The notes under the pieces are model-generated. The model worked only from the letters and a program-made list of their open reading frames with translations. It did no database searches and was not told the DNA's origin. From Clostridia bacterium (GTDB taxonomy: Bacteria > Bacillota > Clostridia > Oscillospirales > Acutalibacteraceae), in assembly GCA_017448285.1 (NCBI GenBank), contig JAFSLT010000070.1, positions 3,501 to 67,500 on the forward strand: a stretch of DNA of 64,000 nucleotides, written 5' to 3'. Positions 524 through 61,448 of the stretch are shown in pieces. Positions within the stretch are counted from its first letter, which is position 1; each line of letters starts with the position of its first letter. A program made the translations under genes and the position numbers.

Positions 524-548
524 TTCTCTCCGGCTTCGCCGGAGGAGA
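524..548. repeat. GC-rich palindromic element (PE) copy
   Basis: ttctctccggcttcgccggaggaga, 36 bp after the clp stop. Confidence 0.85.
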
Positions 549-638
549 TGATGCAGATCCTTTATGTTGCTACATTGTATAACTTCTATGAATCATTAAC
601 ATATATCCACTTTTAGCAATGCCTTATCCTCATTTTTG

Positions 639-667
639 TTGAATTTAACTTTTTAATATATTATAAT
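639..667 (+). promoter_or_regulatory. Sigma-A-type promoter of the toxin-like transcript (copy 1)
   Basis: TTGAAT (639..644), 17 bp spacer, TATAAT (662..667). Confidence 0.55.
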
Positions 668-740
668 AAAAAACTGTGGCTTGGAAACGCGGGTTCATCT
701 TTGGCTTCTCTCGAGTTTCGAGGAAAAGCGAGGTGATTAA

Positions 741-863
741 ATGCTCGGTTGGTTTATATTTTTCTTCAAAGTGTTTAAATTCGTTTACTTTGAATTGAAA
801 AAAAATAGAAGAAACAATCGACGCCCGCGAAAGAAGCGTGGACGTCGGAAAAACAATAGATAA
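741..863 (+). CDS. Small hydrophobic peptide with a basic tail (type I toxin candidate, 40 aa)
   Basis: RBS gaggtga precedes ATG 741. Product is MLGWFIFFFKVFKFVYFELKKNRRNNRRPRKKRGRRKNNR. It falls below the ORF-track size cutoff. Confidence 0.45.
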   Translation: MLGWFIFFFKVFKFVYFELKKNRRNNRRPRKKRGRRKNNR

Positions 864-890
864 AAACCGATGAACCCGTGACCAAGTCAC
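797..890 (-). ncRNA. Candidate antisense (antitoxin) RNA, copy 1
   Basis: Predicted start is about 7 nt downstream of the minus-strand promoter at 897..925. A hairpin at 819..847 is followed by a T-rich tract on the minus strand. It overlaps the 3' half of the small ORF. Confidence 0.35.
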
Positions 891-896
891 ATTTTT

Positions 897-925
897 ATTG
901 TATCATAAAATTTTGAAAATATCAA
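897..925 (-). promoter_or_regulatory. Convergent sigma-A-type promoter (antisense RNA, copy 1)
   Basis: On the minus strand: TTGATA (925..920), 17 bp spacer, TACAAT (902..897). Confidence 0.5.
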
Positions 926-1280
926 CCGATATTTTCGATTTTTTGTGTGAAAAAATCGTAATTCCTCCCCAGAAGCGCAGAAGAGAATCTCTCGGCTCAA
1001 TCTTTTTCAAAAAATACACTACTTCGAATATTGCAAGTATGGGTCATGCGCTAAGATAGTTTAAAAACGCAAAAACTTCAGTTTTATGGACTCAAAAAAA
1101 GAATTGACAAAAATTTTGCGCGTTTAGAAAAATTAGACATAACCACCATACCATCATATATAAAATTTTAATAAAATATAAATGCAATAAACGATGAAAA
1201 CCGCTACTACCCGTGAATTTACACTTTTTTGGTCATGTACTAACCCACTTTTTTTTACTCTTGTAAATTCACCGTACAAT

Positions 1281-1350
1281 GTACTAATGTACTAATGTAC
1301 TAATGTACTAATGTACTAATGTACTAATGTACTAAATGTACTAATGTACT
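1281..1350. repeat. 8-bp microsatellite (GTACTAAT)n, about 8.6 units
   Basis: gtactaat is repeated head to tail, with one 9-bp unit (gtactaaat) at 1329..1337. It is intergenic, about 280 bp upstream of the sipL-like gene. Confidence 0.95.
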
Positions 1351-1632
1351 CTTCAATTATGATATCATAAACAAAATAAAAAAACAAGTGCTTTTTGCCA
1401 AAAATCAAAAAAATAAATAAAAAAATATAATTAAGAAACAAAAATATAGTATTTATATCTGGAAAAGGCAGTAGACTGAGCATTCTCTTCGGCACCAGCC
1501 GAGGCATTTAGATAAAAATTCTTAACAACAATGCATAAAATGATTTTTTCAGAATATAGATTAATACCTATGTTCTGAAATTTTTTTGGTTTCAAACGAT
1601 TTTTTCATTGATTGTAAAATAGGAGATGTAAA

Positions 1633-59479: not shown

Positions 59480-59508
59480 TTGACAAGTTCATAGGTGTAT
59501 GATATGGT
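59480..59508 (+). promoter_or_regulatory. Promoter, downstream copy
   Basis: TTGACA, 17 bp spacer, TGaTATGGT. Confidence 0.45.
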
Positions 59509-59562
59509 AAAAACAATGTACGATTTCATACATAATAATGATTGATAAGGAGAGCGATTTTT

Positions 59563-60180
59563 ATGTCTATAAAGAATTTTTCCAAGATAACCGCAGTTTA
59601 TCTTTTAAGTGTTTTTGGTATGCTTGTTGTTAATAATAATAACACCAGAGTTAGCGCAATGAACCCCTCGAACCTCTCTTCTAAACCTAAAGTATCTTCA
59701 GTATCTTCAGTATCTTATAAACCTGGAATGTCTTCTATGACCAAAACAGTTAACCTCAGACTGAATGATGACAGTGAAAGTAGCTTTGAAATTAATAACG
59801 ACAATGATGTTTCAATGAAGGAGGACATGAATGTGGAAAATAAAAATTTGGAACGATCAAATCTAAAAGAACTATTAAAAGCAAAAGCTGTGTCAGTGGG
59901 AGGTAAAGAAGAACATAAATTTAACAAAAAAGAAAGTAAAACAAAAGAAAAAGAAAGTAAAACAAAAGAAAAAGAATCTGAGAAATCAGTACCACCTTCG
60001 CAGCCTATGTCAACTGGTAAAAAAGTAGGAATTGTTGCAGCAATAGTAGCAGGAGCAGCTGCACTTGGCACGGGTATTTATGCTCTTTGCCAAAAAGTTT
60101 CAAGAACATCATCATCATCAAGAAGTAACATTACTCCACAAATTAATGCAAGTACAAATAAAATTACAAATGCAAATTAA
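59563..60180 (+). CDS. Secreted Ser/Lys-rich repeat protein with a C-terminal Gly/Ala-rich TM anchor
   Basis: ATG 59563 follows AAGGAGAG. Signal MSIKNFSKITAVYLLSVFGMLVV...VSA, KESKTKE repeats, and KKVGIVAAIVAGAAALGTGIYALCQK. Confidence 0.7.
   Translation: MSIKNFSKITAVYLLSVFGMLVVNNNNTRVSAMNPSNLSSKPKVSSVSSVSYKPGMSSMTKTVNLRLNDDSESSFEINNDNDVSMKEDMNVENKNLERSNLKELLKAKAVSVGGKEEHKFNKKESKTKEKESKTKEKESEKSVPPSQPMSTGKKVGIVAAIVAGAAALGTGIYALCQKVSRTSSSSRSNITPQINASTNKITNAN
59929..59976 (+). repeat. In-frame 21-bp tandem repeat (about 2.3 units)
   Basis: aaagaaagtaaaacaaaagaa x2 plus a partial unit. It encodes KESKTKE repeats. Confidence 0.85.
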
Positions 60181-60220
60181 AATTTAACCACTTCCGTCTG
60201 AAGCCGGAAGTGGTTAAATT
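60181..60220. terminator. Perfect 16-bp stem-loop between convergent genes (bidirectional terminator candidate)
   Basis: aatttaaccacttccg-tctgaagc-cggaagtggttaaatt, starting 1 nt after the stop at 60180. Confidence 0.6.
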
Positions 60221-60246
60221 TATCTTTAAATTTATTCCATATATTA

Positions 60247-60624
60247 TCATTCATGCCGCAAGCTAAACTTTTTCAACAATATTTCTATATTATTGGTTTT
60301 TGCTATATTATTATCATCATTATTGGCTTTGGTCGTATTATTATCATTATTATTGGTTTTTGTTATATTATTATCATCAGAATTTTTTTTATTATTAATT
60401 TTTAATGCACATACAGTTGTTACAACAATTCCGGCAATAATAATAGCGCCTACGCCACCTAAAATACCATACTTTTTTATTTTGCTTAAATGGTTTTTTG
60501 AAGAAACCGTGCTTATTTTTGTATTATTTTTGGAAATTTCATCTTTTTTTAGTGCCAAAGTTTTGCCGTTAAAAATTGACATACATGTTAATAATACAGA
60601 TGCTATTTTTTTGTAACCTCTCAT
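60247..60624 (-). CDS. Leader-family membrane protein with an Asn/Asp-rich decapeptide repeat tail
   Basis: Leader MRGYKKIASVLLTCMSIFNGKTLA, helix KKYGILGGVGAIIIAGIVVTTVCALK, then three copies of (D)DNNITKTNN-like units. Confidence 0.7.
   Translation of the reverse strand: MRGYKKIASVLLTCMSIFNGKTLALKKDEISKNNTKISTVSSKNHLSKIKKYGILGGVGAIIIAGIVVTTVCALKINNKKNSDDNNITKTNNNDNNTTKANNDDNNIAKTNNIEILLKKFSLRHE
60289..60378 (-). repeat. In-frame 30-bp tandem repeat x3
   Basis: Units at 60289..60318, 60319..60348 and 60349..60378 (attattggtttttgctatattattatcatc and variants). Confidence 0.9.
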
Positions 60625-60758
60625 GATATTATTTTCCTCCCGCTAAATCAAAAATTTAATTTTTAAAATTAGTTGAATTTTGATTAAATCCAAAGAAACA
60701 ATTCCTCCAAGTAACGATAGGAAGATTTATCACTTACGGCCTTGAAAAAATTCCAATT

Positions 60759-61022
60759 TTATTCTGCTTTATTTACTGCAGCAACTGACCATTTTTTTAT
60801 CCTTATACTTTCAGACTGACTTTTAATAACAAAAGATTCGTCTTTGACGCTTATAACTGTTCCAACAATTCCGCCGATTGTTGTTATTTCATCTCCGATT
60901 TTAATACTGTTGCGCAGTTCTTGCTCTTTTTTGCTCTTTTTTTTCTGAGAAAGCGTCATAACAACAAACATAATTATAATGGGAACCAATAGCATAAGAT
61001 TCATCAAGATATTCTGATCCAT
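60759..61022 (-). CDS. yajC: Preprotein translocase subunit YajC
   Basis: TM segment followed by KIGDEITTIGGIVGTVISV. ATG 61022 follows AAGGAG. Confidence 0.85.
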   Translation of the reverse strand: MDQNILMNLMLLVPIIIMFVVMTLSQKKKSKKEQELRNSIKIGDEITTIGGIVGTVISVKDESFVIKSQSESIRIKKWSVAAVNKAE

Positions 61023-61072
61023 ACAATACACTCCTTAAAATTCAAAAAGTATAGTTTCATTATATCACAAGT

Positions 61073-61418
61073 ATTATTTTTTGCAACCATATTTTTGCAA
61101 GAACATGATTATTTTATCCGTTATTACCGAATATAATCTCTGATTATTATTTTGCAACGCATTTTTATAAAATTGTATAAAAATATACTTTTTTCGAAAC
61201 CCATAATATGTATTCTCTCCGGCAACCGTCGGAGAGGATCTTTGCTTATTATTTTGCAACCATATTTTTGTGAGAATATGATTATTTTCTTCGGTATTAC
61301 CGAATATAATCTCTGATTATTATTTTGCAACACATTTTTATAAAATTGCATAAAAATATACTTCTTTCGAAACCCGTAATGTGTATTCTCTCCGGCAACC
61401 GTCGGAGAGAACATTTCT
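61073..61418. repeat. Tandem duplication (2 x 173 bp) of an intergenic block ending in a PE
   Basis: 61073..61245 and 61246..61418 are about 90% identical by eye. Each contains ttgcaaccatatttttg ... tttcgaaaccc ... ttctctccggcaaccgtcggagag. Confidence 0.9.
61188..61237. repeat. PE copy with a left arm
   Basis: acttttttcgaaacccataatatgtattctctccggcaaccgtcggagagg. Confidence 0.85.
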
Positions 61419-61448
61419 GTTTTAATTTTCAAGTTTCGAAAGAAATCT
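61361..61448. repeat. Full-length PE with both inverted arms (about 88 bp)
   Basis: cttctttcgaaac-N12-ttctctccggcaaccgtcggagagaa-N21-gtttcgaaagaaatcta. The two arms are reverse complements of each other. Confidence 0.85.

Follow-up and report, generated by a model that had tools for sequence, protein, structure and literature searches.

A dense family of GC-rich palindromic repeats between the genes of an uncultured ruminant-gut Clostridia bacterium

Why does a GC-rich hairpin of nearly the same sequence recur between the genes of an AT-rich bacterium, and is it the usual terminator of this organism or a dispersed repeat family? The question is raised by a stretch of 64,000 nucleotides (positions 3,501 to 67,500 of contig JAFSLT010000070.1, assembly GCA_017448285.1; hereafter the window), which originates from an uncultured ruminant-gut Clostridia metagenome-assembled genome (MAG) and was traced to a ~107-kb contig out of ruminant-gut metagenome assemblies. 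Its G+C content is 26–38% per 2 kb and ~32% overall, and its genes encode Lon, GyrA, GyrB, a second ParE/ParC-like pair, a glucose phosphotransferase system, SpoIVA, and SipL. The GyrB protein is identical to one of “MAG: Clostridia bacterium”, and its next named relatives, from Oscillospiraceae and Acutalibacteraceae, share ~72–75% identity. The window was compared with many strain-level contigs (94–99% nucleotide identity) and several related lineages (GyrB 80–94%), and the gene list for the analysis of context was guided by gene calls on related contigs.

This analysis confirmed that the GC-rich hairpin repeat exists as a dense family in the window. On balance, we favor the view that it represents a lineage-specific, non-autonomous palindromic repeat family of a low-G+C ruminant-gut Clostridia clade, similar to repetitive extragenic palindromes (REPs) and miniature inverted-repeat transposable elements (MITEs).

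The hairpin core, its arms, and its copies

The core of the repeat, TTCTCTCCGGC-N3/4-GCCGGAGAGAA, is a GC-rich perfect palindrome of 19–25 bp inside A/T-rich flanks. Its loop varies in sequence and is mostly 3 nt long, with lengths of 3–8 nt among copies that are good in other respects, and the hairpins are predicted to fold with −11 to −20 kcal/mol and an 8–11-bp stem, either as single-stranded DNA or as RNA transcribed from either strand. The pattern CTCTCCGGC-N3-GCCGGAGAG, with up to two mismatches, has 14 matches in the window against 0.00 expected, and a looser regular expression of the core has 22. A covariance model, as proposed in an earlier note made from the letters of this DNA, was built from 25 aligned copies (consensus AAATnTTCTCTCCGGCAnCGCCGGAGAGAATnTTT, 11-bp stem) and searched with filters off. 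It recovered all 25 building copies at E ≤ 5e-6 and, together with five weaker matches, yielded 30 intergenic copies in 64 kb, where none are expected by chance; this corresponds to about one copy per 2 kb. The weaker copies are located at 11519–11553 (E 4e-4), 23555–23588 (E 2.5e-3), 41347–41381 (E 0.15), 25097–25131 (E 0.31), and 61280–61314 (E 0.12).

The earlier note had counted about 26 well-preserved and about 7 degenerate copies, for which the model gives 25 strong and 5 weak ones: four of the seven degenerate copies were recovered weakly, the one at 31715..31740 turned out to be a good copy, and those at 1483..1506 and 38415..38436 were not recovered at E ≤ 1. The note had also described an almost invariant stem with a variable loop. 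Variation of the loop is evident; the stem is conserved (87% of cells are paired in the window copies) but not invariant. A single model match falls inside a gene (17988–18024, Mur ligase gene). This look-alike (17996–18016) has a 7-nt loop and overlaps residues GHRPER of the protein, and because no hairpin exists at the site in the 94% strain L059, it is probably a coding coincidence and not a member of the family.

A subset of the hairpins carries a conserved arm, a claim of the earlier note that proved sound. With up to three mismatches, the arm TAGACTTCTTTCGAAAC has 10 matches in the window versus 0.36 expected, nine of which aim at the neighboring hairpin, with the tenth (14552–14568) standing as an orphan. 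A clear arm is found on nine or ten window hairpins, mostly on the left only or the right only, and none is detectable on at least 15 of the 30. In aligned armed copies from the window and other MAGs, the fullest unit measures ~93–100 bp and consists of TAGACTTCTTTCGAAAC, ~12–15 nt, the hairpin, ~21–24 nt, and GTTTCGAAAGAAGTCTA, with TAGAC...GTCTA at the ends. The copy that had been described with inverted arms on both sides spans 61357–61449 (93 bp). Four complete copies have an identical asymmetry of a short left and a long right spacer, namely this one, its strain equivalents in L008 and L141, and a copy at an unrelated locus, L081, of MAG RGIG9287. In L081, the 17-bp inverted arms are perfect, and in the window copy there is one mismatch per arm; the two-armed form is predicted to fold as a long hairpin with −31 to −42 kcal/mol. 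A third flank type (“arm C”), in which GGCATTGCTAAAAAAGATAGATATTT precedes the hairpin, occurs at 9359 and 44218 as well as in L001, L006, L015, and L020, and the copies at 51083 and 52138 have ~50 nt of yet another flank in common. As the core is constant and the flanks differ, the flanks define subfamilies.

The copies and associated features of the window are as follows, with the strand given where one was assigned:

527..545: hairpin core; a long R-type arm, inverted, at 481-526, whose TAG is the stop codon of gene 57..488
6765..6782: hairpin core with a 4-nt loop; divergent gap between an mnmA-like gene and lon
9385..9403: hairpin core, 50 nt past the stop codon of lon, with a flank of the “arm C” type (9359-9374)
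11527..11545: decayed hairpin unit between parE and parC
11600..11618: good hairpin, likewise between parE and parC, not present in strain L266
11556-11585 and 11644-11673: 30-nt exact direct repeat around hairpin 11600, comprising the ribosome-binding site and start of parC
13888..13906: hairpin core in a convergent gap, at distances of 10 and 15 nt to the two stops
14552..14568, plus strand: orphan arm with no hairpin beside it
14765..14816, plus strand: short L-type arm and hairpin 14797-14816
15411..15460, plus strand: L-type arm and hairpin 15442-15460
17996..18016: look-alike in the Mur ligase gene, probably a non-member
23563..23580: weak or decayed copy (model E 2.5e-3)
24464..24482: hairpin core, first of a pair in a convergent gap; among the few with a T-run
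24565..24583: hairpin core, second of this pair
25105..25123: decayed copy with an arm-C-like flank; L081 has the same flank and a decayed hairpin
31718..31736: hairpin, 8 nt past the gyrA stop
34362..34422, plus strand: hairpin 34362-34380 and a long R-type arm
34736..34791, plus strand: hairpin 34736-34754 and an R-type arm; an 88% direct repeat of 34353-34417
35817..35877, plus strand: hairpin 35817-35835 and an R-type arm
36255..36273: hairpin core with the top model score; among the few with a T-run
38516..38534: hairpin core in which a T-A pair is compensated; located upstream of the gene for RNase P RNA, in a divergent gap
41355..41373: decayed copy, unit B of a 135-nt tandem duplication
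41490..41508: good copy, unit A of this duplication (41340-41610)
44189..44233: hairpin 44189-44207 and an arm-C flank at 44218-44233
51083..51101: perfect copy with an 11-bp stem, upstream of the secG-gyrB operon
52138..52156: hairpin core; ~50 nt of upstream flank in common with 51083
53313..53331: hairpin core
53819..53837: hairpin core in a divergent gap
56616..56634: hairpin with a 7-bp stem and a 7-nt loop, 13 nt past the stop of a P-type ATPase gene and followed by TTTTT
58982..59032, minus strand: hairpin 58982-59000 and an inverted L-type arm at 59016-59032
61184..61235, plus strand: L-type arm and hairpin 61216-61235, in the first unit of a tandem duplication of 173 nt (61074-61409)
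61288..61306: weak copy (model E 0.12)
61357..61449, plus strand: complete two-armed element, with the L arm ~12 nt before and the R arm ~21 nt after hairpin 61389-61408

Placement beside genes and constraint on the stem

At least one copy is present in 24 of the 36 gaps of 40 nt or more, so that the earlier estimate of roughly one copy per intergenic region was somewhat generous. The observation that copies mostly lie past stop codons held up: in most gaps, the first hairpin is located 8–75 nt after the stop, and in single-copy gaps between co-directional genes, it occupies the stop-proximal half in 11 of 12 cases (p = 0.006). Copy density is highest in convergent gaps (4.7 per kb), followed by co-directional (3.6) and divergent gaps (1.9). 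Divergent gaps contain four copies, and the spacer between parE and parC contains another two.

The 10 nt downstream of the hairpins contain 3–7 T, with no run at most copies, where the U-tract by which intrinsic terminators are recognized is hence lacking; runs are present at 36255, 56616, and 24464, in agreement with the note's remark that some copies only are followed by one. Canonical terminators, as detected with a simple scan, show no excess either in the window (19 versus 15.3 expected) or in the relative L004 (10 versus 11.4). The idea that G-U pairing survives on the transcribed strand of decayed copies was rejected: compared with the opposite strand, its stability was higher in 9 cases, lower in 12, and the same in 3. 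A perfect palindrome yields the same RNA hairpin from both strands, and the missing strand bias is therefore no argument against a role as RNA. Given the stop-proximal bias, a role as a 3′-end hairpin remains likely, and being an “element” and having a “terminator-like function” are not mutually exclusive.

Evidence for maintenance of the stem comes from 29 copies of related lineages, in which changes on both sides affect 8 pairs, versus 4.5 ± 1.3 in shuffled alignments. The same copies contain 26 compensatory cells versus 10 ± 4, a value exceeded in none of 500 shuffles, and controls with slid pairing were lower as well. Stem pairing is maintained in the long term, either by selection on the folded form or by palindrome-correcting template switching.

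Distribution in relatives and change between strains

An exact-pattern scan of 185,579 species genomes (one per species, 596 Gb) matched at least 115 stretches. Among the matches listed, multi-copy loci are restricted to the low-G+C rumen Clostridia MAGs SRR1222429_bin.86, which is 94% identical in nucleotide sequence to the window at 15.5–21 kb, and RGIG9287. The other listed matches are mostly single and found in high-G+C genomes, which agrees with an estimate of ~140 chance matches for a 16-base palindromic pattern in 596 Gb. The covariance model found copies in the loci of five relatives, namely L001 (5 in 13 kb), L006 (5 in 22 kb), L012 (6 in 22 kb), L015 (4 in 8 kb), and L020 (6 in 8 kb), and none in L004 (0 in 22 kb). 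The latter locus, whose GyrB is 84% identical to that of the window, contains no GC-rich hairpin of any sort in its 22 kb (1–21917), and its intergenic gaps are very short. Copies with arms, which the earlier note had expected elsewhere if the family is dispersed, were found in other MAGs at other loci (L081, L020, and L012). The hairpin at 51083, upstream of the secG-gyrB operon, is also present in L001 and probably in L006.

Plasmid and phage collections contained no match to the family, Rfam has no family that matches the hairpin repeat, and a literature search turned up no description of a dense palindromic repeat family in Clostridia. Scans of viral contigs gave 0 matches for the hairpin and 6 for the arm, the latter being about the chance level by a rough estimate without a computed control. 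The matches listed in a metagenome scan for arm, gap, and half-hairpin were rejected as chance, except for L141, a strain of the 61.2-kb locus. Unrelated arrays on the same core were seen in L082 (310–654, Fumia xinanensis), with three identical TCTCCGGCTCTGCCGGAGA hairpins at 163-nt spacing, and in L031 and L071 (Candidatus Flemingibacterium merdigallinarum), with runs of differing GC hairpins and CCACTCTC between them.

One difference between lineages concerns the parE-parC spacer. In L006, L267, and L268, the two genes are 1–9 nt apart, and the parE stop overlaps the parC ribosome-binding site. In the window, the gap measures 149 nt and contains two hairpin units. A decayed unit comes first, followed by 30 nt that exactly duplicate the ribosome-binding site and start of parC; next is a perfect hairpin, whose unique flank amounts to 58 nt, and then the same 30 nt once more, leading into parC. 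The 98% strain L266 (ParC 98% identical) has two decayed units in tandem and a single copy of the 30-nt target. Because the two 30-nt repeats are identical and the two hairpin units only ~61% alike, the good unit is a recent addition and no simple copy of its neighbor. The insertion polymorphism that the earlier note had predicted for a dispersed family is therefore seen at this site, which is empty in three lineages and filled and strain-variable here, and it concerns hairpin units without full arms.

Further changes involve duplications and breakpoints at hairpins. Past gyrA, L132 has three tandem ~121-nt units versus one in the window, each composed of a hairpin, a ribosome-binding site, and the first ~22 codons of the next gene. 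The window itself contains tandem duplications with hairpins of 135 nt (41340–41610) and 173 nt (61074–61409). Homology with L059 stops at the hairpin edge at 14797, with the arm missing in L059, and synteny with L012 breaks at the edge of hairpin 51083. The armed copy 15411–15460 is missing from L059, where a ~470-nt segment that includes a small open reading frame (ORF) takes its place. L009 (10495–10613) and L011 (7617–7735) carry a unique 119-nt insert between the hairpin arms TTTCTCCAGTG and CACTGGAGAAA, and the corresponding hairpin is decayed in the window (~43545–43575). No donor copy of the 119-nt L009 insert or of the 58-nt insert of the parE-parC spacer (11586–11643) was found in any compared sequence.

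Two candidate events were rejected. An apparent 100-bp insertion in L010 at window position 41390 is a scaffold gap of Ns, and a 1.3-kb indel relative to L008 (52128–53427), considered as caused by a hairpin, is explained by an IS5-like remnant. The segment, which includes a family-2 glycosyltransferase gene, is absent from L008 and L010; both strains instead have a 225-bp remnant of an IS5-like transposase gene (8053–8278 in L008) between direct copies of TTCGTGTTAAYAGGCCCTAA, one such end being present at window ~53430.

Several other features of the window were recorded. Three BsrG-like type I toxin–antitoxin modules (633–935, plus strand; 34440–34735, plus strand; ~35880–36250, minus strand) share a common promoter, long-range 5′/3′ pairing (fold z = −6.4), a strong ribosome-binding site, and a convergent promoter at the 3′ end. 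Their small ORFs are hydrophobic, with ~40, 38, and 27 amino acids; a basic tail is present in two of them, and KK forms the end of the third. The Rfam BsrG match at 35921–36143 is under threshold (28.9 bits, E 1.8e-4). Each module has family hairpins on both sides, one of them a decayed copy missed by the model. A 137-nt tandem duplication without a family hairpin (59282–59533; 1.8 copies, 92% identity) contains a TTGACA promoter-like site upstream of gene 59542..60180, and an 8-nt microsatellite (GTACTAAT, 9.6 copies; 1274–1350) has exactly three fewer units in L138, which represents this contig in a different assembly. The ParE/ParC-like second topoisomerase pair (9541–13877) scores far under the NCBIfam cut-offs for gyrase and topoisomerase IV alike and is therefore a diverged pair.

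Origin of the family and comparison with known systems

A REP/MITE-like repeat family is favored over ordinary terminators because one core occupies ~30 intergenic sites with arm-bearing flank subfamilies, because the same armed unit is found at unrelated loci of different MAGs, and because the family is missing from the related lineage L004 and the parE-parC spacer is filled here, empty in three relatives, and strain-variable. The proposal of the earlier note, a dispersed MITE- or REP-like family that does not simply consist of terminators, is in this sense supported, whereas its likening of the unit to the RPEs of Rickettsia is an analogy. Copies would arise through insertion into intergenic DNA and through local tandem duplication of hairpin-containing segments, and the points at which homology between strains breaks off fall at hairpin edges. 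New loci may be reached with the help of a transposase that acts in trans and recognizes either hairpin or arms, or else through template switching when the hairpin is replicated; the length of the duplications seen (30 to ~120 nt) points at least in part to replication slippage or template switching at the hairpin. Copies would persist mainly just past stops, being tolerated or put to use as 3′-end RNA hairpins, and a transcribed hairpin would shield mRNA from 3′ exonucleases and damp read-through. Their stop-proximal placement matches that reported for REPs (PMC3733652), which suggests that copies are tolerated or useful at transcript ends.

Several results weigh against this interpretation. 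No transposase or RAYT gene was seen in the window or the compared loci; Y1_Tnp is likewise absent among the Pfam annotations of ~68 kb of the source contig and of the relatives' short loci, and the only insertion sequence (IS) seen is IS5-like (DDE_Tnp_1), in L008 and L012, with different ends, TTCGTGTTAACAGGCCCTAA. The aligned flanks of armed copies contain no consistent short target-site duplication, with TA inside the TAGAC ends as a possible one, and for an armed copy we found neither a clean empty site nor a clean excision/insertion pair. The remaining hairpins that were compared between 94–99% strains are present in both. Covariation among the window copies equals that of the shuffled control despite the 87% pairing, and divergence between close strains amounts to 2.6% in stems, 1.7% in flanks, and 5% in loops, so that stems show no short-term excess of conservation. 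The compensatory changes seen across lineages could stem from quasi-palindrome correction instead of selection, and the stop-proximal placement would equally fit a purely functional, terminator-like element.

That last possibility, in which the hairpins are the immobile transcription terminators or 3′-end processing signals of the clade and a host factor keeps their sequence, is rather unlikely in our view, although several observations favor it: the hairpins begin 8–75 nt past stops and are stop-proximal in nearly all single-copy co-directional gaps, convergent gaps are the richest and divergent ones the poorest, canonical terminators are at chance level so that other means must end transcripts, compensatory changes occur across species, and the hairpin upstream of secG-gyrB keeps its position in the window, L001, and probably L006. 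It does not account for the lack of a U-tract at most copies, for the four copies between divergent genes, or for the two between parE and parC, which are contiguous in three relatives; L004 manages without any copy in 22 kb, terminators do not come with arms in inverted repeat, subfamilies with common flanks, or tandemly duplicated units, and between strains, stems are no better conserved than flanks. Less probable still is a more far-reaching alternative, a self-propagating 3′-end module that spreads by template switching without a conventional transposase, or else the first dense, domesticated REPIN-RAYT-like system in Clostridia. Template switching would account for the great length of the target duplications (30 nt at parC and, in L132, ~100 nt that comprise a ribosome-binding site and 5′ coding sequence), for the breakpoints at hairpin edges, and for re-perfected arms, and a domesticated system would supply transcript-end structures to an AT-rich genome without canonical terminators.

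A process without any transposition, in which copies multiply solely through slippage or template switching at the hairpin and subsequent rearrangement, with arms corrected as quasi-palindromes mimicking a mobile family, seems improbable. It would be in line with four tandem or partly duplicated hairpin arrays (in the window, with unit lengths of 88, 135, and 173 nt; in L132, of ~121 nt), with a further 47-nt unit duplication in L266, with a 30-nt direct repeat at hairpin 11600 that far exceeds transposase target duplications, and with breakpoints at hairpin edges, but ~30 dispersed loci are alike in the core, or in core and arm, and not in their surroundings, the same two-armed unit lies at unrelated loci of different MAGs, and around 11600, the identical 30-nt repeats and merely ~61% similar units show that the second is no simple copy of the first. 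We give even less credence to the view that a dimeric protein, for example a global regulator or a nucleoid-associated protein, binds the palindromes as double-stranded DNA. Symmetric half-sites with mostly 3-nt spacing, the lack of strand asymmetry, and copies in promoter-containing divergent gaps would suit such a protein; loops of 3 to 8 nt in otherwise good copies, compensatory changes that preserve pairing instead of half-site sequence, and the strictly intergenic, stop-proximal location would not, and arms and flank subfamilies are left unexplained. DNA uptake signal sequences of the Neisseria/Haemophilus style can occur downstream of genes as inverted pairs that resemble terminators, as discussed in PMC1852404. 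This explanation is effectively refuted, because in contrast to uptake sequences, the family has no single copies of the motif inside genes: every exact half-site TCTCCGGC in 64 kb is part of a hairpin, and the only coding-sequence occurrence is the in-gene look-alike. Integron attC sites were also considered and rejected, as the arms misfit the RYYYAAC/GTTRRRY boxes, copies occur in both orientations, and their surroundings consist of housekeeping genes.

Dense families of palindromic repeats are well known from Proteobacteria, where the REP, BIME, and REPIN elements are mobilized by RAYT Y1 transposases; E. coli REPs stabilize upstream mRNA and attenuate transcription, and IS elements that target REPs are known. 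The Clostridia family resembles them in its short (~20–35 bp) GC-rich extragenic palindromes, its very high copy number, its conserved stem and variable loop, and its association with rearrangement breakpoints, and the insert between hairpin arms in L009 and L011 recalls the IS elements that target REPs. It has the same predominant placement as REPs, which are mainly found downstream of coding regions and between co-directional or convergent genes (PMC3733652). REP palindromes are also described as bearing, on one side, a conserved tag (GTAG or CGTC) that stays unpaired (PMC3733652), whereas the consensus AAATnTTCTCTCCGGC...GCCGGAGAGAATnTTT is symmetric and has no such tag, its TTC/GAA flanks belonging to the palindrome. 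Copies are mostly single, without close inverted doublets, and multiples are spaced 73–440 nt apart and mostly represent tandem duplicates; as both the tag and the doublet organization are lacking, the family falls outside the named REPs. Further differences are the Clostridia host, the absence of a RAYT gene from the window and the compared loci, and the 17-bp terminal inverted arms of a subset, which REPs do not have.

With MITEs, such as the Neisseria Correia elements (CREE), pneumococcal RUP and BOX, and enterobacterial ERIC, the family shares a non-coding, intergenic armed form of ~93–100 bp, which folds as a long hairpin and occupies different loci in related genomes, as well as the presence/absence polymorphism at parE-parC. 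Terminal inverted repeats of 17 bp (TAGACTTCTTTCGAAAC/GTTTCGAAAGAAGTCTA, perfect in L081) are found in the armed subset only; unlike in MITEs, arms are undetectable in the majority of copies (at least 15 of 30) and many copies are one-armed, target-site duplications are not evident (TA being possible), and the compared loci contain no parent IS with these ends. Intrinsic terminators are likewise stable GC-rich stem-loops a few to tens of nucleotides past stops, but they have diverse stems instead of one common stem sequence and a U-tract that is lacking here; some copies of the family moreover lie in divergent gaps or inside an operon, and a related lineage is devoid of them.

At ~1 copy per 2 kb, the family would rank among the densest palindromic repeat families. 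In a widespread, uncultured lineage of the rumen, its hairpins flag breakpoints and differences in copy number at the strain level, which makes the family a practical marker for strain typing and a source of breaks in MAG assemblies. Should the hairpins act as transcript ends in a genome with almost no canonical terminators, mobile DNA would be supplying regulatory structure. Taken together, these comparisons identify a new family within the dispersed extragenic palindromic repeats, which belongs to none of the named families and is no new kind of system; it leaves current concepts unchanged and extends them to a new host group.

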